Source of the DNA: a phage
Reading direction: 5' to 3' (one strand)
DNA length: 64,000 nt
Sequence record: PQ327946.1
The notes beneath the pieces were generated by a model that did no database searches, was not told where the DNA came from, and worked only from the letters and a program-made list of their open reading frames with translations. Every line of letters starts with the position of its first letter. Positions within the stretch are counted from its first letter, which is position 1. The position numbers and the translations under genes were made by a program. Below, in pieces: positions 1-54,111 of this stretch.

Positions 1-152
1 AACCCGGCATTCAGTGCACCACCTAATGCAATATTCAACATCGGAATACGAGTAGGGACTTCATCACGATTATTAAACAGCTTAGACTTAGTCAAGTCTG
101 CAGTCATTTTAGAAGTAGAAGCTTTAATCAGACGAGATTTTAAATCAGACAT
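1..152 (-). CDS. uvsX: UvsX RecA-like recombinase, N-terminal ~50 codons; gene continues past window start
   Basis: ATG at 152..150; translation MSDLKSRLIKASTSKMTADLTKSKLF... matches the T4 UvsX N-terminus as I recall it; synteny with gene 42. Confidence 0.8.
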   Translation of the reverse strand, partial: MSDLKSRLIKASTSKMTADLTKSKLFNNRDEVPTRIPMLNIALGGALNAG

Positions 153-233: not shown

Positions 234-252
234 AAAAACTTTAAACAGGCTC

Positions 253-801
253 TTAACGAGCCCATTTGATAATTTCTGTAATCAAATTATTACGTTCGCT
301 TGCATTAAATCCTATAACTTTGTTAGCACCATCATGATTAAGTAATTGATACGTTTGGATTTCGTTATGAATTGCAAACTCTTCAAAATATGAAATGACT
401 GTATTAAAACCGAATGAAGACAAAGTAATAAGGTCGTCTTCAAAACTTTCAGTCATTTCGTTACGTGTTAAAATAATTGTGAACACATCATGGTTTTGGC
501 AAAGACGAACATAATCCTGTTCATAAACGTCAAGAACCGAGTCCGCATCTTGTCGAATACGTCCATAAACCCAGTTACTAATATATCCACGGTCTAACAG
601 ATAAATCTTAGTAGGGTCTAAATAATTCAACATCGTTTCGAAACAGCCAACTTCATTTCGAGACTTAACATCGAAACGTCCATCAACTGTTCGTTTAAGG
701 AAATCAATCTTTACATATCTTTCACTAATTTCCATTATGTCATTAATGAAAGTTGTTTTACCAGCATTATCCGGGCCATCTACTAAAATAATTTTAGCCA
801 T
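253..801 (-). CDS. P-loop NTPase, small kinase-like protein
   Basis: 182 aa ORF; Walker A GPDNAGKTT near N-terminus; ATG at 801..799. Confidence 0.55.
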   Translation of the reverse strand: MAKIILVDGPDNAGKTTFINDIMEISERYVKIDFLKRTVDGRFDVKSRNEVGCFETMLNYLDPTKIYLLDRGYISNWVYGRIRQDADSVLDVYEQDYVRLCQNHDVFTIILTRNEMTESFEDDLITLSSFGFNTVISYFEEFAIHNEIQTYQLLNHDGANKVIGFNASERNNLITEIIKWAR

Positions 802-802
802 T

Positions 803-1702
803 TTATTCCTCGATTACGACATCTTCATATTTAGGTATATTATACGGTGAAGAAATTAAAGCGTTAAAGTAGATGAACTCACCAAGACCTGGATGGAATA
901 CTTCTTCAGGATTTTCGAAATATTGAATCTTCGGACGTCCTTTAAGAATTTGATAGTACTCAGTTTTAGTTGGATTAAAAATTCGAATCAGCGCTTCTTC
1001 AGGATACTTATTTCTGTCGAAACTATTATTTGGATCAGTTATATAAAGCGGTTGACCTAATTGAATTGCGCATTCAACCACTTGTTCAAAACGATAGCAC
1101 GGGTCACTAATTCGAAATGGATGAAAAATACCATCTAGATGAATAGGAGCCAAATCACCTACAAGACGCTGCATGATGGAAGGACGTATAACTTTCTGCG
1201 TTACGATAATCTTATTACCATCCGCACCAGCGTTAACCAGCACTTCCTTTTGACGTTCATTCAACACAGTAGTTTGAAGTGAACGATTAACCGACAACAT
1301 GTCGGTTTTTAAGAATTCGTCAATATAAAAACGCGGTTTATTAGGGTCTGCGGTGATATTGAAATTGAATTCTACATCAAAAGCACCATCATATCCAGTG
1401 ATATCTGTTATTAGAAAATCACAATCATAATAAGCAATTAATGAATCAACCACAAATTCATTTTCAGACCAGAAATATTTACGAGTGTTATACGCGTTAT
1501 CTTTATACCATAATGGAACAAACTTAAATTCTGGGAAAAGACGTTCACATTCTTTAATATCAGATGCATTACGTGGATATGTAATCACATCACCTGGATT
1601 AGCACGGTGCAAATGAAGTTGGAAGTTGCCATCCTTAAGGATAGCATACTGTCCAGTTTCATAAGACCGCATACTCAAGATAGGTACGCGGAAAATAGCC
1701 AT
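803..1702 (-). CDS. Hypothetical protein in the syntenic slot of T4 beta-glucosyltransferase; candidate novel DNA-modifying transferase
   Basis: 299 aa ORF between uvsX and gene 42; no resemblance to T4 beta-gt as I recall it. Confidence 0.5.
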   Translation of the reverse strand: MAIFRVPILSMRSYETGQYAILKDGNFQLHLHRANPGDVITYPRNASDIKECERLFPEFKFVPLWYKDNAYNTRKYFWSENEFVVDSLIAYYDCDFLITDITGYDGAFDVEFNFNITADPNKPRFYIDEFLKTDMLSVNRSLQTTVLNERQKEVLVNAGADGNKIIVTQKVIRPSIMQRLVGDLAPIHLDGIFHPFRISDPCYRFEQVVECAIQLGQPLYITDPNNSFDRNKYPEEALIRIFNPTKTEYYQILKGRPKIQYFENPEEVFHPGLGEFIYFNALISSPYNIPKYEDVVIEE

Positions 1703-2418
1703 TAGTCAAGGAATCCTTTAACATAATCAAAATCACGTTCAAACACATGGGCACTTACCATGGTATGAGTATAATCACCAACTTCTACACCACATTCGTT
1801 AGCGATATAATGAAGTAATTTTCCTTGGAGATAAAAATCCAACTGCATAACAACAGCACAGTTCTGAGAACGCATATGGCAGTGGGTATAAAGCTTACCA
1901 TCACGAATATAATAAGTCACCGAGTCAGTACATGGATATTCAAGCGTTTCGTCCGAATCAAGCAAAGCCTGATCAGAACTTTCTAGAATTTGGAACACAA
2001 CTCTTCGGGAGTTAGGCTTCTCTTTAAGTTCTTTTAGAAGAGCTGGTAATTGGGCCGCAATGCGAGGACCATAGAAAGTGTTGAAGTTCGCCGGCAAAAC
2101 ATCTGATTTTGGTTTAGAAATAAATTTAGCGACATTAGGATATGCCTTAAACGCTTCTTCTGCGTCAGTACCACCAGAAATCATAAACTTCCAGAAGTCT
2201 TCGGCATATTCATAAGAGATGCGGTTAATACGTGGGTCGGTCATTTTGAATGATGATGGAGTGTCAACAACTACTGTCATAGACCCAATTTCATTACAAC
2301 GTCCAATACGAGAATCAGTTACGAATTCCGGGTTTTCTAAAATTTCACGATTGACTGCTTTAAATGCGGTTTGAAAATCTGCGGCTTTGATATATTTCAT
2401 TGTGTTATGTTTTCCCAT
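1702..2418 (-). CDS. 42: dCMP hydroxymethylase (thymidylate synthase family)
   Basis: 238 aa; ThyA-family motifs YPCTDS and MRSQN; position upstream of gene 43 as in T4. Confidence 0.75.
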   Translation of the reverse strand: MGKHNTMKYIKAADFQTAFKAVNREILENPEFVTDSRIGRCNEIGSMTVVVDTPSSFKMTDPRINRISYEYAEDFWKFMISGGTDAEEAFKAYPNVAKFISKPKSDVLPANFNTFYGPRIAAQLPALLKELKEKPNSRRVVFQILESSDQALLDSDETLEYPCTDSVTYYIRDGKLYTHCHMRSQNCAVVMQLDFYLQGKLLHYIANECGVEVGDYTHTMVSAHVFERDFDYVKGFLD

Positions 2419-2696: not shown

Positions 2697-3857
2697 TCAT
2701 TCTGGGTACCTCAAAGCGTCGTCAGAGTTAGTTATATCAATAATAGATATAGAATTTTCTGATAACCCATTTTTAGATAACTGACGTTTATAATATCTTT
2801 CACAATATGTACACGTCGTCCCGCAGATTTCATTAGCACAATCGAAATCTGGATGTTTGAACCACCTTTTTTCTAAAAAGCCATCTAACAAAGAGGTTTC
2901 AATATTTACCGTATGTGAAAACTCGGTCTCATTTTCAAGAGTGAAAATGGTCTCTAAAGGCTTCCACAATTCCAACAAATTACCTTCAAATTTTTCGGAA
3001 GCATAAGCTTCAAGAACTTTCAAAATGTAGTCTGTGCTACCTGTACGTCCTGAAACTTTGAATTGAGTGATACCAATATCATTATAAAGTTTCAAATCTT
3101 GAGGACGAACAAAACGAGTTCTCAACCAGTTAAATGGGTCTGTATCACGAGCTTTAATACAGTGCTGCATTGGATACCCATTTAAGGATTTGGCATCATC
3201 TACTGTAACATCGGTGCTATGGAAAATATAGCAAGAGTCACGATAACTACAATGTGTTGTATACCCTTTACCAGCATTAGAACAGAACTCATTTACAAGA
3301 ACTTCAAATATTATATTGTTCTTATTACAAAACTCTGCTGCACGCTTCAGGAAAGAAACTGAACGGTTCTTATGAATTCCGCAGCAGACCTTTTTGATAT
3401 TATATTGGTCATGCAAGTATTTGATTTGAGTTACAGCATCGACATGTAGAATTGTTGAAACTTCAATCTCAATGTCTTTATTGACTTCACGAACAATTTC
3501 CATAACAACAGGGTTAGCGATAGTAATACGCCATACGCCTATTGACCAAAGATACTGAACATAATCCTGAATAGCTTTCTTCTTCCACTCAACTAGTTCT
3601 CTTTTTGAACCAGGATTTATCGTGTTGAGTGTATAGTTAAAGCAAATACCTAATTCGTTACAACGTTTAACGTAGTCTTCTAACATCTTTTTGTCAACGT
3701 CAGGAAGCCTAAAATCAGGTCTGGCTGCTACAAAAGCCATTTCTCTTGTAGAGCCATATACTTCGTTTATCAAGCTATTAGGATAGGTTTTATTGAGCTC
3801 TACGATTTTATCAAGAAGAGCTAAATCAAAATTCGTTCCGATTTTAAAAGTATTCAT
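2697..3857 (-). CDS. U32-like TIM-barrel protein with C-terminal cysteine cluster
   Basis: 386 aa; N-terminal pattern resembles U32 family; C-terminal CANEICGTTCTYC cysteine cluster. Confidence 0.45.
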   Translation of the reverse strand: MNTFKIGTNFDLALLDKIVELNKTYPNSLINEVYGSTREMAFVAARPDFRLPDVDKKMLEDYVKRCNELGICFNYTLNTINPGSKRELVEWKKKAIQDYVQYLWSIGVWRITIANPVVMEIVREVNKDIEIEVSTILHVDAVTQIKYLHDQYNIKKVCCGIHKNRSVSFLKRAAEFCNKNNIIFEVLVNEFCSNAGKGYTTHCSYRDSCYIFHSTDVTVDDAKSLNGYPMQHCIKARDTDPFNWLRTRFVRPQDLKLYNDIGITQFKVSGRTGSTDYILKVLEAYASEKFEGNLLELWKPLETIFTLENETEFSHTVNIETSLLDGFLEKRWFKHPDFDCANEICGTTCTYCERYYKRQLSKNGLSENSISIIDITNSDDALRYPE

Positions 3858-3914: not shown

Positions 3915-4316
3915 TTATAGATTCGGTTTATATGATTTAAATGTTTCGAATTCGCCTTTATTCATAAGAGCTTTGAATTCGTCAGGACGCATAGCTTTGT
4001 CGTCGATAATCCAATCATATACTGGTTTATGTGTTAGCAAATTATGGTACTTCAATCCAATGTTTGCCAAGTTCTGAATCAGACTTGGGAGAATGTCAAT
4101 TGCTATACGACCAGGACCGACTGACTTCATACCGCGAGCAGTGTAAAGCGTTATGGTATGCCCTGCATCATACAGGGCATTAATGGCAGATACCATTTCG
4201 ACGTCTGGTTTGAAGTTCACGTAATCACGATTGTTATTCCACTCTGTTATACAATCATCGACATCAAAACAAAGATTAAGCATGTTTTCTACACGGTGCA
4301 TTAGATTCGTTCCCAT
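3915..4316 (-). CDS. HAD-superfamily phosphatase-like protein (start uncertain)
   Basis: 133 aa ORF; FDVDDCIT fits HAD motif I (DxD); alternative ATG starts at 4301 or 4283. Confidence 0.5.
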   Translation of the reverse strand: MGTNLMHRVENMLNLCFDVDDCITEWNNNRDYVNFKPDVEMVSAINALYDAGHTITLYTARGMKSVGPGRIAIDILPSLIQNLANIGLKYHNLLTHKPVYDWIIDDKAMRPDEFKALMNKGEFETFKSYKPNL

Positions 4317-5986
4317 TGATGAGTGATATCGCCACCGATTGGACGATAAGAAACACCAGTTTCTTTATCAGTTAGTACCCATTTACCAGGATTTTTTGTA
4401 ATCAGAGTAGCCGTTACAGGTTCTGCTACATCATAACTAATAGTGCCGTCCTGAAGTACACGGCCCATGTTACGTAATTGCTTAGTCAGAAGTTCCATAC
4501 CTTTATAATATGCGGCTACCGCTTTAAGTGGATTATTCTTGAAATAACCACCTAATGCAATCCAGATAATTGCTACAGCCAAATGATGATACTCATTAAA
4601 CGAACTCATCTTTCCATATTTGTAAACTAATGGATTGATGTTAATAGTCACATTACAAGTTGTTTCATCAATAGTAAACTGACCCCAGGTCGGATTAGCG
4701 TTGAATTCATCATAACCTGAAACAGCATAAAGCACTTTAGCTTCATCATACAATTTTGGCCCATAAATCTTGGTTTCACCAAAATATCCACGAGGGTCGA
4801 TAAACTTGACTTCACCATTATCAGTAATCATAGTATTACTGAAGTTCGGGTCACCATGAATAACAGAGTACTGTCCCTGAGAACGGTTATGATAACGAAT
4901 AAGGTGTTCTAAAGCTTGTTTCAGCATTGGCTTCAGACGCCCAATCTTAGTGTAGTTCACATGTGTGATTTTACCAAATGAATCAATCAATGGTTGAATA
5001 CTTTCACAACGATCAATAACTTTCGTATAGAATTCTTTAGTGAAATCACGACGAACAGTTTCAGGACTTACAAAATAAGTGTCTGTGCTGAATTTCAGTG
5101 CGTCTAAAATTGCATCAACAATTTGTGGACGAGCAAGACTCGATTTGGATTTAATATATTCAAATGCTGGCTTACCTTTAATGCGTTCCATTTCAAAGTT
5201 ATTTTCATTAACAGAAACTAACTGAGGAACTGAATCTGATTTCACTTTAAGATACCATGAAATCTCATCTTTCTGAAGAGCTCGTCCCTGTTCGGTTAAT
5301 GCGAATTTAGTTACAGTTTCTTCACCAATTTCAACTGCATTAAAACTACGATTAAGTTCACGAACTTCATGAGCTTTTTCAAGTTTAGGCATATCACCTA
5401 AATCAATTAGATTCATAAGCTCTGATTTATTGAATGCGCTGCCGTAAAGGAATTCTACGAAATCACGTCCTTTGCAGTATTCATGAATTTCCTCATCAGT
5501 AGAACCCATATAGAATTCCCAGTCTTTGAACTGATAAATTCCTACAACATTACCACCTGTTGAACCTACGTTAGTGATATTTTCGCCGTCGAAATTATAT
5601 CGACATTCGTCACCCTTAACATAGATTGCGTTAACATTCCAAGACCATGAACCAAAATCAGGAATAATATCACACCAGTTAACAATTACATTATGACCGT
5701 CTAAATCTTTGTGTAATTTAGCAAGAGCATAAGCAGAACCGTACGCTTCATCAACTGTACGAATAGTCACATTGAACCCTTCTTGCTCACAATAAACTCG
5801 AACAGTTTCAGCAAATTTTGAATGAACTACTACAATAATTTCATCTGCGCCAAGGTCAGAATAAATTGTATACAAATTGCTCAGAATAGTGTCTTGTTTA
5901 TAGTTAACAAGCACCTTAGGAATATGATGCGTTATTGGATACAAACGAGTTGCCAGTCCAGCACCAAGAATAACAGCTTTTTTCAT
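4301..5986 (-). CDS. Bifunctional sugar-1-phosphate nucleotidyltransferase / APH-fold sugar kinase
   Basis: 561 aa; N-terminal ILGAGLATRL nucleotidyltransferase signature; C-terminal HGDPNFSN ... DPRG kinase motifs. Confidence 0.6.
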   Translation of the reverse strand: MKKAVILGAGLATRLYPITHHIPKVLVNYKQDTILSNLYTIYSDLGADEIIVVVHSKFAETVRVYCEQEGFNVTIRTVDEAYGSAYALAKLHKDLDGHNVIVNWCDIIPDFGSWSWNVNAIYVKGDECRYNFDGENITNVGSTGGNVVGIYQFKDWEFYMGSTDEEIHEYCKGRDFVEFLYGSAFNKSELMNLIDLGDMPKLEKAHEVRELNRSFNAVEIGEETVTKFALTEQGRALQKDEISWYLKVKSDSVPQLVSVNENNFEMERIKGKPAFEYIKSKSSLARPQIVDAILDALKFSTDTYFVSPETVRRDFTKEFYTKVIDRCESIQPLIDSFGKITHVNYTKIGRLKPMLKQALEHLIRYHNRSQGQYSVIHGDPNFSNTMITDNGEVKFIDPRGYFGETKIYGPKLYDEAKVLYAVSGYDEFNANPTWGQFTIDETTCNVTININPLVYKYGKMSSFNEYHHLAVAIIWIALGGYFKNNPLKAVAAYYKGMELLTKQLRNMGRVLQDGTISYDVAEPVTATLITKNPGKWVLTDKETGVSYRPIGGDITHQWERI

Positions 5987-6167
5987 GTTGTGGTCCTCAT
6001 TGGTAAGTAGGAGTATTGTACACTATTCTAGTTAAAGCATTCATACTTTGCTTGTAGTCCAATCATAATCCATCCGATTATAAGAGTCGGAATCATTACT
6101 GGAGCCGTTAAGCTCCAGTAGATAGTCATGACAAGCATCAATAGTAAAAGTCCTATTGTTATTGCTT

Positions 6168-6803
6168 TCATTGTTCGCCTCGTAACATGGCACCTAGTGC
6201 ACCGCCAGGGTGGAACTTAAGGAAGTCATTAGAGGTAAATCCACGTTCAGACGAAAGGTTGATAGCAAACGTATCGATAAGCGCTAACAACAATGTAGTG
6301 GACATAGTCGGAGCCAGAGAATTCTCATCAACCTCTACTGCGATGCCTGTACAGAACGTATAATCAAAAAGAGCTTCGTATTCTTGTGGAATGTCTGGGT
6401 TACAATGCAACAGAATCTGTTTGACGTTCGGACGAATCATTTTAAGATGCTTAGCCACGCCTATCATTTCTTCAGTTTTACCAGAACGACTAATATGAAT
6501 CAACACATCATTAGGCGCAATGAATCCTGCATCACCGTGAGAATAATGCCCGGTGTTCAAGTACATACTCGGGATACCGAGTGAAGCAAATGTCTCAGAA
6601 GCTTTAGTTGCGATATTAGCGTTCTTACCAACACCTGTAATAATTACACGACTTTCATAATTACTAAGTCCTGGGCGTCGAAGAGTTTCTAGAATAGCAT
6701 TATAACGAGCAGGGTTTTGACTAATTACTTTGGCCATAGCGGCCAAAGAAGAAGCTTGTTTTATGATTGCGTCAATAGCGATAGTAATAGGAGTAGTTTT
6801 CAT
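6168..6803 (-). CDS. SIS-domain sugar-phosphate isomerase
   Basis: 211 aa; ITGVGKNANIA ... HISRSGKTEE pattern typical of SIS domains. Confidence 0.6.
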   Translation of the reverse strand: MKTTPITIAIDAIIKQASSLAAMAKVISQNPARYNAILETLRRPGLSNYESRVIITGVGKNANIATKASETFASLGIPSMYLNTGHYSHGDAGFIAPNDVLIHISRSGKTEEMIGVAKHLKMIRPNVKQILLHCNPDIPQEYEALFDYTFCTGIAVEVDENSLAPTMSTTLLLALIDTFAINLSSERGFTSNDFLKFHPGGALGAMLRGEQ

Positions 6804-6843: not shown

Positions 6844-9555
6844 TCAAAAATCGAACATATCGAACAGAGATGCTTTCTTCTCGTAATCGAGTTTCGCTGC
6901 TGATGTGAATCCTTCAAGTGGTTTAATAAATGTCTTCTCAAGGAGAACAGTGTAGTCCATCCAATGAAGTACGTCGTCTTTAATTAAATCTGTGATTTCA
7001 GTACCAGAAGGCCATGCGATACATTTATCACCGAATGGGTTTCCTTCACGTAAAGGCAGAACATATACTTTTTCACCTTCTACAACTTGCGGTGCATCGA
7101 TATTACCTTTGATAGCACGGTTATACGTCAGAATTCCACGAATATGGAATGGGCATTTGGGACCAGGGAATCCACCTACATCATATTTAGCAATGTTATT
7201 CGCAGAAGATACCGACGCGATGCTAATATAATTCAATTGACGGAATTCTTTTTCAAACTCTTTAAAATATTCTTGTAATGATTCTTCACCTTCTTGAAGC
7301 ATACGACGAATACATTCTTTAAGAGCTTTCTGTACTGCTTTAGGAGTCGAAGATTTCTGAGTCTCTAGACCCATGATTTTGAGTTTAGGCTCAGCATAAC
7401 GAGTACCTTCCATATCCCACACGTTTAATGCATAACGTTTCTTACCAGTCCAGAATCCACCAATACCTTTAGAACCGAGTGGAGGCCCGGCGATAGCTTC
7501 TCGGTCCATGAACATTAAGTGTTGTTTATTGTTCATGTATTCACACATTTCACGGAAACCTCTATCAATAGCTGGTTCCATACGTTCACGTGCAAACTTA
7601 TCTAAGAAGTCTACCCAATGGTTGGTATCACGGAATTTAGATTCACCAACCTTATCGATAATTTTATCAGCAGATACGTAAATAGAGTCTGTATCACCAT
7701 AAAGAACGAAAGCTTCACCTTCTGTACCACAAACTTCATTCAGATATTCATTAACTTTACGTTCAATCCACTGTAAAGCCATTTGACCAAATGTTGTGAT
7801 TGCAGTAGCATTACGCAAATCGTAATAACGGAACCAAACGTTTCCAAGTGCACCATAAAGCGAGTTGATGAGCAATTTACGGTTAATCTGTGCAGTCATA
7901 CCTGCAACTTCAGTACGTTGAGCTCTAAACAACATTTCATTAAGAGATTTAGCAGACAACTTTTTAATCTTTTCTTTAATCTCATCACTGAAGTCGAAAC
8001 GATAATCAACATCTAATGGTTCGTCAACAGAAAGATTAGGATTATGCAATGCCTCTTTAATTATTTCACCATTACGTTGAGCCGCAAGCATATAACCTTT
8101 ATGTTCTTTACGTTGATTAAAGACTTTAGTGATTTCAGTTGGAACAACACCGTCACGGTCTTTATAATACATCATGCCGTTAGGAGAACAACTGTACACA
8201 TCAGAAGGACGTTCAGCAACAGCGTTAATATAATCATGCAATGGAGCTACTTTAAACGTTCCTGCTATTGTTTCCGGGCTAATATTCACTTGGCGAATAA
8301 TACTTGGATACAGAGATGTAAGGTCGAAACTCATTACATATTTGTATCGATTTGGAATAGGTTCCTTAACAAAAGCGCCGGGATAAGGTTGAACCGGGTG
8401 AGAACGACCTTGTGGAATCACCTTGTTCTGCTCTTTAAGGCTATTAAAAATAATAGCATCCCATGTTTTAATTGGGCTAAACACGGATTGAATCTGTATC
8501 TTAGCATAATAACCCATGTCCAAACTCAAGTTGATGAACTGACGCTTAGCATCAATTTGCAATACACGATACACGTCGATAATGTTATAAGAAATATATC
8601 GTTGGTGATTGCTTTCACGAAGCTTAGAAATAGGGCCGTCATATTTCAGTTTACCAACGTTCAATTCAAATTCTGAAATGTAATCCAGAGAATACGACGG
8701 TTGATTGGTAAAAGAGAATTTTTTGTAAAGGTCAATGTAATCAAGAACAGAGATACCGAATAATGTAATGATTTCACGAGAACCATACATGTTTTCGATA
8801 ACTTTAACACGAGTTTTACGATGTGGTGATAAACGTTTCGCAGTAGATTCGCCAAAAATATTCTTGATTCGGTTATACACATATGGAATATCAAATGACT
8901 CAACGTTCCATCCAGTCAAAATGACAGGAGTTTTCTGTTGCCAGAAATTGAGATATTCCATCAATAATTCTTTTTCGTTATCGAACGGCATATAAATGAT
9001 TTTATCGATAATTTCGGATGGAACTTCATCACCACCTTGTTCTTGAAGCTTAGCCGCAATTTCGATAGACCATTCTTCTACATTACCATATGGAGAATTC
9101 AATAGATCAAATACGTAGAACCTGTCGTCAATTGAGTCATAATGGGTGATAGCATCAATCGGATGTTTTGCTTGTGACGGCTCAGGGAACCCATCCGGAG
9201 ATGTTACTTCGATGTCGAAGTTAGCCACACGAATTTTTGTATGATCGTATTTGATTTCATAGTTATAAGTGTCAGACAAATACGCCAATTTGAAATCGTC
9301 CATGCCAAGTGCTTCAAGACCGATATCTTCCATGCGTTTAATCCATTGGGAGGCATCACGCATATTGGCGAACAACTTACGAGTACACGGCTTACCGTAG
9401 ATATCGAAATATTTCGTAGCCTGACTTTCCGGACAATGAGCAAACAGTGATGGTTTATATTCTACTTCACGAGTACGTTCACGGCCATTAGAATCGATGT
9501 AACGTTCAAAAATTGAATCACCAATCTGTTCAACCGTTAAGTAAAATTCTTTCAT
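6844..9555 (-). CDS. 43: DNA polymerase (family B)
   Basis: 903 aa; exonuclease and polymerase motifs (FDIE, YGDTDS); N-terminus matches RB69-type gp43 as I recall it. Confidence 0.97.
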   Translation of the reverse strand: MKEFYLTVEQIGDSIFERYIDSNGRERTREVEYKPSLFAHCPESQATKYFDIYGKPCTRKLFANMRDASQWIKRMEDIGLEALGMDDFKLAYLSDTYNYEIKYDHTKIRVANFDIEVTSPDGFPEPSQAKHPIDAITHYDSIDDRFYVFDLLNSPYGNVEEWSIEIAAKLQEQGGDEVPSEIIDKIIYMPFDNEKELLMEYLNFWQQKTPVILTGWNVESFDIPYVYNRIKNIFGESTAKRLSPHRKTRVKVIENMYGSREIITLFGISVLDYIDLYKKFSFTNQPSYSLDYISEFELNVGKLKYDGPISKLRESNHQRYISYNIIDVYRVLQIDAKRQFINLSLDMGYYAKIQIQSVFSPIKTWDAIIFNSLKEQNKVIPQGRSHPVQPYPGAFVKEPIPNRYKYVMSFDLTSLYPSIIRQVNISPETIAGTFKVAPLHDYINAVAERPSDVYSCSPNGMMYYKDRDGVVPTEITKVFNQRKEHKGYMLAAQRNGEIIKEALHNPNLSVDEPLDVDYRFDFSDEIKEKIKKLSAKSLNEMLFRAQRTEVAGMTAQINRKLLINSLYGALGNVWFRYYDLRNATAITTFGQMALQWIERKVNEYLNEVCGTEGEAFVLYGDTDSIYVSADKIIDKVGESKFRDTNHWVDFLDKFARERMEPAIDRGFREMCEYMNNKQHLMFMDREAIAGPPLGSKGIGGFWTGKKRYALNVWDMEGTRYAEPKLKIMGLETQKSSTPKAVQKALKECIRRMLQEGEESLQEYFKEFEKEFRQLNYISIASVSSANNIAKYDVGGFPGPKCPFHIRGILTYNRAIKGNIDAPQVVEGEKVYVLPLREGNPFGDKCIAWPSGTEITDLIKDDVLHWMDYTVLLEKTFIKPLEGFTSAAKLDYEKKASLFDMFDF

Positions 9556-15688: not shown

Positions 15689-15917
15689 TACATGCTTCAG
15701 CCATTTTAAGAATAGAACCAGGAGTATCGTTGTCCATTATATTAAAGCTAAATTCAATAGCCCAGTCGGTGCAGACATGAACTGCTTTAACTTCATTGCC
15801 TTCAACGCGTAATGGCTCAATCCAATACTTGATAGCGTTCTCAAATCCATCATCGTCTTTAACGTCCATTTCAACTTCAAGTCCAAGCCCAGCATTGTTA
15901 AATTCATCTAAAGTCAT
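15660..15917 (-). CDS. 46.2: Hypothetical small acidic protein
   Basis: 85 aa ORF between 46 and 47. Confidence 0.45.
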   Translation of the reverse strand: MTLDEFNNAGLGLEVEMDVKDDDGFENAIKYWIEPLRVEGNEVKAVHVCTDWAIEFSFNIMDNDTPGSILKMAEACIEDAYNDED

Positions 15918-16933
15918 TGTGTTGCCTCAATATAAAGTTCGTTGGAATATTTGACCAGCGCTTCTCTGTCTTCGTCTGAGATATCTGGAATCGCGTCAAT
16001 ATATTCTTTAATGATATCTTGAAGTGATTTAATCTCGATTTCCTGGTCGTCATCAGATTCAACACTGTTATCAACTTTAGAAACCATACGAAGAGAGTGA
16101 ACTACTTTTTCAAGTTCAGATTCAAACTTAGTCAACTCTGAATCAATTTCTGATACTATAACACGTATGGCTAGATTAGTATAATCAGAATAATTGATTT
16201 TGCCTTTAAACGGATAAGTGATTCGTCGATGCCATGTTGTTTCATTAGGAATAAATTCCATACGTTCAACATCAGTGTCAAATACCCAGAATCCGCGTGG
16301 GTCGTTCTCATCACCTGCAGTAAGTGTCCACGGTGTCCCAATATATTTGACGTTAGCAGCTTCAGAGATTGTGTGGAAGTGGCCGGACCAGACTTGTTTA
16401 TAGGTCTTTAAGAAATCAGGTTCAAGCCCATGAGACTTCATTCCTTTATAGAAATAAAAGCCGTTCAGTTCCCAGTGACCAACACAATACGCCGCGGAAG
16501 AAGTCTTGATGTGCTCTAAGATTTCACCTGTATTTTCTTCACACATCCATGGAATGATATCAATCAGACATCCGTCAAAATCTACAGTAGTTGGATGTTC
16601 GTAAATAGTAAAGTTTTCAAATTGAGTTAACAATTCAGAAACAGTGTTAGGTGTTATTGTATTCTTAAACGCCATGTCATGGTTTCCTATCGTGACATGA
16701 ACGTGAATGCCTGCTTTAGAAATCATATCAACGATTTCACGATTGAATTCCATCGTACGATGTGTAATTGCTTTACGGACGTCAAACCAATCACCGTACT
16801 GAATCCAAGTTTTAATCCCGTGTTTCTTAGAGTATTCAATTGCTTGACGAATACCATCACGTTGAATATCTTGAACCCATGGGTCGTCTTGTTTGACTCC
16901 GATATGGAAGTCGCCTAAGTGCAAAATTTTCAT
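15914..16933 (-). CDS. 47: Recombination nuclease subunit (SbcD/Mre11-like phosphoesterase)
   Basis: 339 aa; calcineurin-like motifs GDFH, GNHD. Confidence 0.9.
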   Translation of the reverse strand: MKILHLGDFHIGVKQDDPWVQDIQRDGIRQAIEYSKKHGIKTWIQYGDWFDVRKAITHRTMEFNREIVDMISKAGIHVHVTIGNHDMAFKNTITPNTVSELLTQFENFTIYEHPTTVDFDGCLIDIIPWMCEENTGEILEHIKTSSAAYCVGHWELNGFYFYKGMKSHGLEPDFLKTYKQVWSGHFHTISEAANVKYIGTPWTLTAGDENDPRGFWVFDTDVERMEFIPNETTWHRRITYPFKGKINYSDYTNLAIRVIVSEIDSELTKFESELEKVVHSLRMVSKVDNSVESDDDQEIEIKSLQDIIKEYIDAIPDISDEDREALVKYSNELYIEATQ

Positions 16934-17215
16934 ATTATTTCCTCATTAGTTAATTCATTCTATCATCCGTTTATAAAGCAAAAAAGGAACTCCGAAGAGT
17001 TCCTATCCACATAGTACACCGTACAGAGGCTCATTTGAACTTTTAAATCGAATGGGCTTGTATGTAATAGTTCCTTCGGCTTTAGCTTTATCATAAGACT
17101 CTTTAAAACGTCTCATTCTTTCTGCTTTGCCTTTACGGATTTTATCGAAATTTTCAGAAGTCTGGGTGTTCGTCATGCATAATCACCTCTCAGAAAATAC
17201 CTAAATCGATTTCTC

Positions 17216-17437
17216 TCATCGTTTCCACCATTTCTTAACTTGAAATGAATCAACCCACACGAGTTGTTTTGGGTCTGCCTTTACAATAGGTGGACAAATT
17301 TCTGTAATAGAACTGTCGTGATATTCCTTTTCAGAGATTTTAACACAAAGAGGACCTCCCAATTTAATGGAGAATCCTGCGTTCAGATTAAGACGTTTAA
17401 ACTTTGTTTGAACTAGCGCCATTAATGATGTCCTCAA
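17216..17437 (-). CDS. Hypothetical protein (alpha-gt slot)
   Basis: 73 aa ORF. Confidence 0.3.
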   Translation of the reverse strand: MRTSLMALVQTKFKRLNLNAGFSIKLGGPLCVKISEKEYHDSSITEICPPIVKADPKQLVWVDSFQVKKWWKR

Positions 17438-17720
17438 TAGCCTGACGAGTAGTAATCCACTGGATTTTAATTAACTTGTCATTATATGGTTGTCGTAGAA
17501 TATCCCGAGATTTCTTAATAGCATATTCATAAGCTTCGAAGTTGTTTTGAATTGCTGCTTCTTGAGCATGAGCATAAAGACGGTTTAGTTCAAAACGATT
17601 CTTTTTAAGAATCTTTTCGGATTTTTTACGTGCTTCAGCTTCATTTTTCTTTTGGATTTCTTGTAGCATTTTAGCTACTGCATCTTCTGCTTCTTTATTT
17701 TCAATAATCTCGGTAGTCAT
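17397..17720 (-). CDS. Hypothetical protein (alpha-gt slot)
   Basis: 107 aa ORF, charged/helical. Confidence 0.4.
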   Translation of the reverse strand: MTTEIIENKEAEDAVAKMLQEIQKKNEAEARKKSEKILKKNRFELNRLYAHAQEAAIQNNFEAYEYAIKKSRDILRQPYNDKLIKIQWITTRQAIEDIINGASSNKV

Positions 17721-17721
17721 A

Positions 17722-17931
17722 TTATCTCATTAAATTAAAATAAAAACGTCCATCCTCTTCAATACAGAACTCATACTCAACCGGAGTCCCATTTATCGAA
17801 AATGACACGTCATGTGGGTTCAAAGGGTCGATGTCAAAATTAATTTTAAATTCACGACCCAACAGTTTTACCAAATAAGGGATTGCTTCGTCAAAAGGTT
17901 CTTCTAAGTAGTTAGAGATGTCAATTGTCAT
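17722..17931 (-). CDS. Hypothetical protein (alpha-gt slot)
   Basis: ORF trimmed to ATG at 17931, just after gp55 stop. Confidence 0.4.
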
Positions 17932-18496
17932 CCTCATATAAAAAATCCAAACTAGGCGAATCGCTAACAACTTCCTTCTTTTCAGCCCCAGGAGCTTTAT
18001 AAGCGGATTCTTCATAATGCGTCATTTTATCGTAGATGTCTTGAATAAACGTTTCATCTACCAACGCTACCATATCATCGTCATGACTGTCGTAGACATT
18101 ATGAACGAAGTAACTATATTTCTTTGCAACTTCCTTACGTTCTTTTTTGATACGTTGGACAAAAGCATTAAAACAAGCTCGAGTTATGTATGCATGTGGG
18201 TTATTGTACTTAGTTTCGTCGAAATTATGAAGTCCCTTAATAGAGGCTTCAATCCCATCTGCAATCATCTCCTGCTTCCAAGACTGGGTATATCCTGAAA
18301 AGTTGAAACGTTTGGACAGGCCTTCGGCGATAAGCATAATTGCTAAACCGATGGTATCATTCTGACGAATAATTTTGTTTGGGTCTTTATTATTTAAGAG
18401 CTCCTTTTTCCACTCGATTATAGCGGCGAGAAGCTCTTTATTATTCACATAGTTATTTTTAGGTTTTTGTTCAGTCATAAGTACCTCTTGGCTCAA
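17921..18496 (-). CDS. 55: Late-transcription sigma factor
   Basis: 191 aa; sequence closely resembles T4 gp55 as I recall it. Confidence 0.85.
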
Positions 18497-53376: not shown

Positions 53377-54111
53377 TTACCTTAAGATTGTTTCAATTTT
53401 AGAATAAAGCTCTTCTAAAGAGCCGTCGTTTGTAATAACTAAATCGCCTTCTTCAATAGGCAACCCAGCTTCTGTAATATGTTTATCAGTGGATTCCGTA
53501 CCAGAGCGAACCACATGAATAACTGTAGCACCCATCGCTCTAGCGGTTTCCATTTCATGGACTTGGCGTGTATCGGTTACAACATAGTAATCGAAATCAC
53601 TTCCAATATAATCCATATAGTTTAATGCAAAAAGTTTAACCCAATACATACGGTCAAATAAATTAACGACAACATCCGTACCGAGGGCTTGCATAAGACG
53701 GCGGATTGACCATGTGTCGTTGATATTATTTATAGCTTCACGCAGGGCTTCATATGGTTTAATATCTAGATATGAATACCCACCTTCTAATGATGATAAT
53801 ACTTTAACATTATTAATTGGTAAATATTGACTTTGTAAATAAATTAGCGCTTCTTCCAATAATTCAATAACATCCAACTTATTGAGATTTAATGGTGTTT
53901 CACGGTCGTATCCAACACCTTCGAAGTATTCATATTTCAACTCAGTGAATACATCAGGATTTTCAGCATGCCTACGTCCCCAGGCTATTGCTAGAGCGTC
54001 TTTAATCGGATATGCCAATTGGTATTTTACGGATTTAAAGTTTGAATTGATGTAATCGGCAGTAGTGTCTTTACCACTACGTTTGATGCCGCTTAAAAAG
54101 ATTAGCTCCAT
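53377..54111 (-). CDS. 1: Deoxynucleoside monophosphate kinase
   Basis: 244 aa; P-loop SGIKRSGKDT; closely matches T4 gp1. Confidence 0.9.
   Translation of the reverse strand: MELIFLSGIKRSGKDTTADYINSNFKSVKYQLAYPIKDALAIAWGRRHAENPDVFTELKYEYFEGVGYDRETPLNLNKLDVIELLEEALIYLQSQYLPINNVKVLSSLEGGYSYLDIKPYEALREAINNINDTWSIRRLMQALGTDVVVNLFDRMYWVKLFALNYMDYIGSDFDYYVVTDTRQVHEMETARAMGATVIHVVRSGTESTDKHITEAGLPIEEGDLVITNDGSLEELYSKIETILR

Follow-up and report, generated by a model that had tools for sequence, protein, structure and literature searches.

The 64,000 nucleotides (nt) of phage DNA analysed here (sequence record PQ327946.1; the whole stretch is henceforth the window) come from a Mosigvirus, that is, an RB69-like phage (in megablast, phage S143_2 is 98.7% identical and there are 152 matches over nearly the full length), and they open with 9.6 kb of minus-strand genes running from uvsX to the DNA polymerase gene (Table 1). 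Two genes of this run are considered here, encoding a 182-amino-acid (aa) kinase-like protein and a 299-aa protein, hereafter GT1, and both lie between uvsX and a gene for a homologue of thymidylate synthase (ThyA). The order at the matching position in T4 is uvsX-segA-b-gt-42-imm-43, and the coordinates and this order agree with an earlier reading of the DNA, made from the sequence alone, in which two open reading frames (ORFs) occupy the slot of the T4 beta-glucosyltransferase (beta-GT). Both are real genes, because the 299-aa protein recurs in 349 phage records, in 341 of them near full length, and the kinase matches the family phrog_761. Only 1 nt separates them, and the start codon of GT1 overlaps the stop codon of the upstream ThyA-like gene at position 1702.

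The two slot genes encode a predicted first sugar-transferase of 5-hydroxycytosine (5hoC) and a thymidylate-kinase-like partner, as has already been proposed for their RB69 orthologues in the literature of 2026, and for this reason the novelty of the assignment is low; what is new here is that the synthase encoded by the ThyA-like gene, the transferase and the kinase recur together as a core module in distantly related phages, together with the counts of phage records for the two transferase types and the fusions of transferase and kinase in either order. The GT1 gene is the intact form of RB69 ORF047c plus ORF046c (99% nt identity), which in the RB69 reference (NC_004928, 24597-25497; L002 4098-4998) are split by one extra T at alignment column 563, a split that Lee et al. 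(NAR 2026, PMC13326640) attribute to a sequencing error. UniProt and BFVD list the halves as two proteins, Q7Y591 and Q7Y592. Lee et al. (PMC13326640) predict that RB69 gp46:47 is arabinosyltransferase 1 and gp45 a nucleotide kinase, and likewise for gp79 and gp78 of DLP3, these published functions being predictions only; in Thomas et al. 2018 only ORF003c (gp3) had been proposed as a transferase, and ORF045c-047c were not discussed. Further orthologues of GT1 are DLP3 gp79 and Thanatos TH1_063.

Table 1. Features of the window, and genes for U32-family proteins next to GT1 in other loci (positions within each locus)
Feature	Position	Strand	Basis or remark
UvsX N-terminus	3-152	-	Translation and annotation of matching record; left boundary of the slot
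Terminator-like hairpin, 10-bp stem and T-rich tail	243-267	-	Straddles the kinase stop codon, before the uvsX upstream region
KIN, 182-aa P-loop nucleotide kinase of thymidylate-kinase fold	253-801	-	RB69 gp45 orthologue
GT1, 299-aa orphan GT-B glycosyltransferase, predicted base-proximal arabinofuranosyltransferase	803-1702	-	Orthologue of RB69 gp46:47
238-aa ThyA homologue, 5-hydroxy-dCMP synthase	1702-2418	-	98% identical to PDB 9iqc/9ir2/9iqu
386-aa peptidase-U32-family protein (RB69 gp50)	2697-3857	-	Pfam PF01136 6.3e-11; weak UbiU match
HAD-type phosphatase (RB69 gp51, AfhF-like)	3915-4316	-	phrog_1238
561-aa bifunctional sugar kinase/sugar-1-P nucleotidyltransferase (RB69 gp52:53, AfhE-like)	4301-5986	-	
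Arabinose-5-phosphate isomerase (RB69 gp55)	6168-6803	-	Pfam SIS 1.7e-10; phrog_5670 2.3e-116
RB69-type DNA polymerase	6844-9555	-	
T4 gp1-type dNMP kinase	53380-54111	-	tblastn
U32 gene next to GT1, L056	9954-11048		
U32 gene next to GT1, L058	5783-6865		
U32 gene next to GT1, L061	9885-10970		
U32 gene next to GT1, L063	10053-11153		
U32 gene next to GT1, L065	10179-11276		

GT1, at 299 aa, is a compact GT-B enzyme and an orphan by sequence, whose family assignment succeeded by fold comparison only and not by sequence methods. Its sole family match is the unannotated phrog_3891 (1.5e-155 over residues 1-298), its matches in BFVD are RB69 ORF047c, RB69 ORF046c and KARL-1, and in nearly all GenBank records it is labelled "hypothetical protein". 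The fold, in contrast, has two Rossmann-like beta/alpha/beta domains with a cleft between them and resembles solved GT-B enzymes, with scores of 17.6 for sucrose-phosphate synthase (6kih), 16.7 for BshA, 16.3 for HepE, 16.0 for PimA, 14.4 for the phage HY126 glycosyltransferase (9iqz) and 13.1 for the T4 alpha-glucosyltransferase (alpha-GT, 1y6f). The fold recognition that had been proposed as a check has thus found a glycosyltransferase fold, and the statement that the protein has no resemblance to beta-GT holds for the sequence (BLASTP E=3.6) and fails for the fold, which places the protein with the DNA glucosyltransferases of T4 in the GT-B class. The fold, the gene context and the orthology with RB69 together support the proposal of this protein as the candidate transferase for the NDP-sugar made by the neighbouring cassette.

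The protein has the GT-B fold, yet it is not a demonstrable member of GT4. It is 40-100 residues shorter than the retaining enzymes of GT4 type (6kih, BshA 6n1x, PimA 2gej, MshA) and, unlike these, it matches neither Glycos_transf_1 nor Glyco_trans_4 of Pfam and has an invariant HPG motif. The C-terminal (donor) half of the family holds invariant R197, D200, K246 and H270-P271-G272, together with a residue 275 that is always acidic, and the N-terminal (acceptor) half holds invariant R12, S13, K23-D24-G25-N26, R33, Y66, R74, Y126 and D128.

The nature of the acceptor is given by the ThyA-like neighbour, a protein of 238 aa with C146, L143E, D169N and N177D, in contrast to gp42 of T4 and gp42 of PS2, which have D169. 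Its RB69 counterpart gp48 has been shown by experiment to bind flavin and to make 5-hydroxy-dCMP (5hodCMP) with O2, and D169N is diagnostic for the 5hodCMP synthase (Lee et al., PMC13326640). As the window protein carries the catalytic Cys146, the N177D of dCMP specificity and the D169N signature, and is 98% identical to 9iqc, the neighbour that the sequence-only reading had taken for the hydroxymethylase of gene 42 is instead a 5hodCMP synthase. It follows that the acceptor is 5hoC and not 5-hydroxymethylcytosine (hmC), and that the assay on hmC-containing DNA proposed in that reading would use the wrong substrate, because the acceptor hydroxyl sits on 5hoC. RB69 DNA contains mono- and di-arabinofuranosyl-5-hydroxycytosine, and not arabinosyl-hmC (Lee et al., PMC13326640), and the Mosigvirus NP has likewise been found to contain arabinosylated 5hoC, according to the Durham-collection paper. 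In a distant contig of 168 kb (L005), a gene of the Flavodoxin_2 family, similar to flavin reductases, lies at 4715-5275 just upstream of a D169N ThyA-like gene and before GT1 and the kinase, a position in keeping with the need of the 5hodCMP synthase for flavin.

As for the donor, the cassette at 3915-6803 makes UDP-D-arabinofuranose (UDP-Araf) from ribulose-5-phosphate, according to the literature. The HAD phosphatase (RB69 gp51) is assigned the step from arabinose-1,5-bisphosphate to arabinose-1-phosphate (Lee et al., PMC13326640, citing He et al.), and HY126 AfhE, the orthologue of the 561-aa protein, is reported to synthesise UDP-arabinose (via Lee et al., PMC13326640). The 561-aa protein itself matches NTP_transferase of Pfam (2e-9) and phrog_4098, with weak matches to kinase families.

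The slot would then probably hold two members of a three-gene module (5hodCMP synthase, GT1, kinase) that builds glycosylated 5hoC DNA. It is very likely that the 299-aa protein is a glycosyltransferase of the 5hoC pathway and quite likely that it is the first transferase, and, as regards the stage at which it acts, we lean towards DNA after replication rather than the free nucleotide. The best-supported reading runs in four steps: (i) the ThyA-like enzyme makes 5hodCMP; (ii) kinases would raise it to the triphosphate, which would be polymerised into DNA; (iii) GT1 would move the first, base-proximal arabinofuranose from UDP-Araf to the 5-hydroxyl of 5hoC, with UDP-Araf held in its C-terminal domain, probably through R197, K246, H270-P271-G272 and the acidic residue 275; (iv) and finally, an enzyme of the gp3 type, encoded outside the window, would add the second arabinose on the DNA. 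The substrate of the 182-aa kinase would be the modified deoxycytidylate, either 5hodCMP or arabinosylated 5hodCMP, and the kinase would work physically with GT1. The alpha linkage reported for the first sugar fits GT1, since its best structural neighbours are retaining enzymes of GT4 type.

With T4 beta-GT, GT1 would share the genomic slot, the GT-B class and the transfer of a sugar from a UDP-sugar to a C5-linked hydroxyl of cytosine, this last being for GT1 a predicted task; with T4 alpha-GT, which has 400 aa against 299, it has no sequence similarity. No second transferase turned up in the window when it was searched by tblastn with the alpha-GT and beta-GT of T4 and with gp3 of RB69. Between genes 47 (15914-16933) and 55 (17933-18478), where T4 carries a-gt and mobB, the window has about 1 kb (16934-17932) with a 107-aa ORF and no transferase. 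The gp3-type enzymes (RB69 gp3, Bas46 Aat and the HY126 enzyme of 9iqz and 9ir0) belong to a different family from GT1 (pairwise E 3.1), are encoded near rIIA, outside the window, and have as their predicted role the addition of sugars two and three; the HY126 glycosyltransferase of known structure is an orthologue of gp3, and not of GT1.

The extent of the module was examined in a census of 55 loci (52 IMG/VR loci collected by the family profile and 3 metagenomic loci), in which all ORFs were scored against profiles of each module protein. Where the flanking sequence is long enough, GT1 almost always directly adjoins a ThyA-like gene. The kinase, too, is a module member in almost every locus, placed next to the HAD gene or immediately behind GT1, and in about 30 loci its gene and that of GT1 overlap. 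D169N and N177D are carried by the window and by the three distant loci checked (L003, L005 and L006). In metagenomic phages L037-L050, L003 and L005, only the triad of synthase, GT1 and kinase is present, and the surrounding 9 kb lack an arabinose cassette; the triad is thus the core, and the sugar-nucleotide cassette an accessory.

The distribution of the two transferase families bears on which of them places the first sugar. The hosts of the 349 GT1 records include Escherichia, Acinetobacter, Klebsiella, Shigella, Serratia, Enterobacter, Proteus, Yersinia and others, whereas the gp3-type enzyme is found in 212 records, almost only in Mosigvirus of Escherichia and Shigella (one copy) and in Acinetobacter phages (two copies), and at least 137 phage records have GT1 without a gp3-type gene. 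The copy number agrees with RB69 being di-arabinosylated and DLP3 tri-arabinosylated, and Thanatos, which is mono-arabinosylated, has only the GT1-type enzyme (Lee et al., PMC13326640). Because its distribution is wider and gp3 copies track the extra arabinoses, GT1 would be the universal base-proximal transferase, and, as a sign of glycosylated 5hoC in a genome, it serves in practice better than the gp3-type "Aat". The opposite order, in which the gp3-type enzyme (ORF003c "Aat") adds the first arabinose and GT1 adds the second sugar or has a target other than DNA, draws on the proposal of ORF003c as arabinosyltransferase by Thomas et al. 2018, on the crystallisation of the HY126 orthologue as "phage HY126 glycosyltransferase" (9iqz/9ir0) and on some records that label the gp3 type "putative hmC-arabinosyltransferase". 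We consider it very unlikely, given the GT1 phages without gp3 and the copy number (0, 1, 2) just described, and also because the hydroxylase gene is tightly joined to GT1 and not to gp3, the deletion of aat in Bas46 is viable and loses protection against one defence system only, and the gp3-type pair of DLP3 puts a third sugar on RB69 DNA that is already arabinosylated (PMC13326640).

A protein of Serratia phage PS2 (Muldoonvirus; L009 5001-5927) lies at the margin of the family: it is a hypothetical protein of 308 aa, its N-terminal half is GT1-like (24% identity, 2e-13), and it has a BFVD match to Serratia phage Muldoon. It adjoins a genuine dCMP hydroxymethylase of D169 type, and PS2 also encodes b-gt and a beta-glucosyl-HMC alpha-glucosyltransferase. 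From this protein and its setting, the architecture of the GT1 acceptor domain may extend to hmC phages.

Several observations weigh against the assignment of GT1 as the first transferase. On the side of the sequence, the protein has no Pfam match at E<=0.1 and no NCBIfam match, a search of the PDB with phmmer and with a profile of 58 sequences gave no match, and hhalign gives a probability of 0.1% for its family against the GT4-like family of gp3. The first Glu of the GT4 motif EX7E is not conserved either, in that the window protein reads E267-x7-E275, whereas among 58 homologues position 267 is mostly K or T and position 275 always E or D. On the side of the biochemistry, transferase activity has been shown for no member of the GT1 family in the accessible literature, single DLP3 transferases were inactive on 5hoC-DNA, whereas gp76 and gp77 together add the third arabinose to RB69 DNA (PMC13326640), and Thanatos TH1_063 gave the activity of a UDP-xylose pyrophosphorylase and no transfer (Brandt et al.). 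The need for the 182-aa kinase (gp45) is also left unexplained, because the gp1-type kinase of these phages already makes 5hodCDP.

The result of Brandt et al. could be taken to mean that the 299-aa protein is a UDP-pentose pyrophosphorylase, and not a transferase. Purified TH1_063 made UDP-xylose from UTP and xylose-1-P, and it transferred nothing to DNA, dCMP, dCTP or cytosine (Brandt et al.); however, this negative is uninformative, because these acceptors were without a 5-hydroxyl. Moreover, the fold is GT-B and not that of a nucleotidyltransferase, a canonical NTP_transferase domain is already present in the adjacent 561-aa protein, whose orthologue AfhE is reported to make UDP-arabinose, and the loci with the triad and no sugar cassette would make no sense for an enzyme that activates sugars. 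Thus a pyrophosphorylase seems to us highly improbable, and the protein is better read as a transferase.

The 182-aa protein had been described as P-loop kinase-like, and this description is confirmed by its P-loop (GPDNAGKTT), by a D70-R71 motif that, like G9-K15-T16, is invariant in 23 homologues, by its match to phrog_761, the "thymidylate kinase" family of PHROG (1.8e-43), and by its thymidylate-kinase fold. It has no match to PF02223 of Pfam, and it scores 15.8 bits with TIGR00041 against a cut-off of 83. The closest known systems are thymidylate kinases (vaccinia 2v54, Thermus 5x7j) and the T4 gp1 dNMP kinase (1dek). A kinase of the gp1 type is also encoded in the window, with 62% identity over 244 aa (3e-95) in a tblastn search with T4 gp1, and in RB69 this kinase (gp159) converts 5hodCMP to 5hodCDP (Lee et al., PMC13326640). 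5hodCMP is thus a possible substrate of two nucleotide kinases of this phage, which are unrelated to each other.

The relationship between transferase and kinase is seen most directly in fusion proteins. An exhaustive profile search found only 230 members of the GT1 family in 1.84 billion representative proteins, and at least 8 clusters (P0257, P0259, P0264, P0286, P0288, P0240, P0277, P0267) have GT1 followed by a P-loop domain of about 190 aa (EGFDRIGKDT ... MTRLFVSDYVYG), which in one further cluster (P0260) stands before GT1. It took hhalign to show that this domain and the window kinase are homologous (probability 94.6%, E 7e-8, 129 columns), as the narrow hidden Markov model of the kinase (A3) did not detect the fused domains. 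The two genes of the slot, presented in the sequence-only reading as unrelated, are therefore single proteins in other phages, and GT1 and the kinase would be functionally, and probably physically, coupled. Such coupling suggests a reason for the inactivity of isolated GT1 proteins in vitro. Seven other fusions (P0167, P0176, P0177, P0192, P0193, which is L057 8452-10104, P0246 and P0226) carry an N-terminal KdsC-like HAD domain before GT1, so that fusion within the module need not mean consecutive steps. One locus with a GT1-kinase fusion (L067 2680-3651) adjoins a canonical thymidylate synthase (L143, D169, N177) and not a 5hodCMP synthase; this contig, of 8.6 kb, is too short for a hydroxylase candidate to come into view.

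These fusions lead to the question of whether the first sugar is added before or after replication, which Lee et al. cannot tell, that is, whether the first arabinosylation hits the mononucleotide or the DNA (PMC13326640). If before, GT1 would arabinosylate 5hodCMP, the Tmk-like kinase would phosphorylate Ara-5hodCMP, too bulky for the gp1-type kinase, the polymerase would incorporate the glycosylated dCTP, and the DNA itself would receive only the later sugars, the second and the third. In support of this there are the fusions of GT1 and kinase in both orders and the overlap of their genes; a gp1-type kinase that already handles 5hodCMP, so that a second kinase implies a second substrate; the inactivity of GT1 homologues on 5hoC-DNA in vitro, with Lee et al. 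leaving the nucleotide option open (PMC13326640); and the invariant basic residues R12, K23, R33 and R74 of the acceptor domain, which could grip a 5′-phosphate. This reading gains slight weight from the fusions and from the redundancy of the kinase. However, the HAD fusions show that domains are joined without any need of consecutive steps, and phages without a gp1 homologue would simply need the kinase for 5hodCMP. Glycosylation of phage DNA is so far known only as a post-replicative process, following the T4 paradigm. In addition, 5hodC enters DNA when only the synthase and the gp1-type kinase are expressed (PMC13326640), and 5hodCTP is thus a usable substrate for the polymerase. Net charge was tried as a discriminator between DNA and nucleotide acceptors and was dropped as uninformative, because acidity is also seen in T4 alpha-GT, which is known to act on DNA (isoelectric point 6.11, against 5.05 for GT1 and 9.05 for T4 beta-GT). 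In sum, transfer before replication is possible and would be the less likely course. The same doubt applies to its stronger form, in which GT1 and the Tmk-like kinase would be an obligate two-enzyme unit that arabinosylates 5hodCMP before polymerisation, the kinase being specialised for the glycosylated nucleotide; if true, such a unit would be the first pre-replicative pathway of DNA glycosylation, and it would explain the inactivity of isolated GT1 homologues on 5hoC-DNA.

A further alternative concerns the kinase alone, which could be a kinase acting at the level of DNA (similar to the 5-hmdU DNA kinase), a sugar kinase, or a non-catalytic partner for the folding or DNA binding of GT1. P-loop kinases that act on modified bases within DNA are known from thymidine hypermodification, the 182-aa protein lies below the thymidylate-kinase thresholds of Pfam and NCBIfam, it looks redundant beside the gp1-type kinase, and the fused versions have a variant P-loop, GKD[TS], with TR replacing DR. 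Against this stand the intact P-loop, the D70-R71 motif and the thymidylate-kinase fold of the window protein, and the alternative as a whole appears unlikely; the analogy with the 5-hmdU-DNA kinase was rejected as unlikely on chemical grounds. The kinase is better read as a nucleotide kinase that works with GT1.

With these assignments, the two genes fill the last gaps in the inventory for arabinosyl-5-hydroxycytosine DNA and do not constitute a new kind of system. This modification shields RB69-like phages, used in therapy or as models, from restriction enzymes, CRISPR-Cas and DNA glycosylases. The fusions of transferase and kinase argue for a joint assay of both proteins, on nucleotide and on DNA acceptors, and the choice between DNA and nucleotide is now directly testable.

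Beyond the triad, the best-conserved member of the module is the U32 protein, with 48-50% identity in lineages where GT1 has about 26%, and with ten Cys that at least 95% of its homologues retain, among them those of a C-terminal cluster CX4CX3CX2C. The U32 family includes the O2-independent hydroxylases TrhP and UbiU/V. In Escherichia coli, the U32-motif protein RlhA, with essential C-terminal Cys, makes 5-hydroxycytidine in 23S rRNA and requires Fe-S clusters and prephenate (Kimura et al. 2017). By analogy, and on evidence that is thin, the phage U32 protein could be an O2-independent route to 5hoC that complements the O2-dependent ThyA-like enzyme; direct BLASTP against E. coli RlhA matched one short motif only, the RB69 protein (gp50) is labelled "sugar or heterocycle reductase" in a table of Lee et al. 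with no discussion (PMC13326640), and our literature search found no paper linking U32 with phage 5hoC. Five GT1 loci have a U32 gene (Table 1) and no ThyA-like gene within the 13-19 kb of sequence examined; their ThyA-like genes could lie elsewhere in those genomes.

Two minor features complete the description of the left end of the window. The hairpin at the kinase stop codon probably marks the end of the synthase-GT1-kinase unit; it is weak evidence, because terminator-like sites are no more frequent than in shuffled sequence (4 found, 3.5 expected), and the promoter and terminator scans of the stretch stood at chance level overall. Between the isomerase and nucleotidyltransferase genes, at 6028-6171 on the minus strand, there is an ORF for a strongly hydrophobic protein of 47 aa (MKAITIGLLLLMLVMTIYW...), whose RB69 counterpart, ORF054c, is annotated as similar to the 42-imm intercistronic region of T4.

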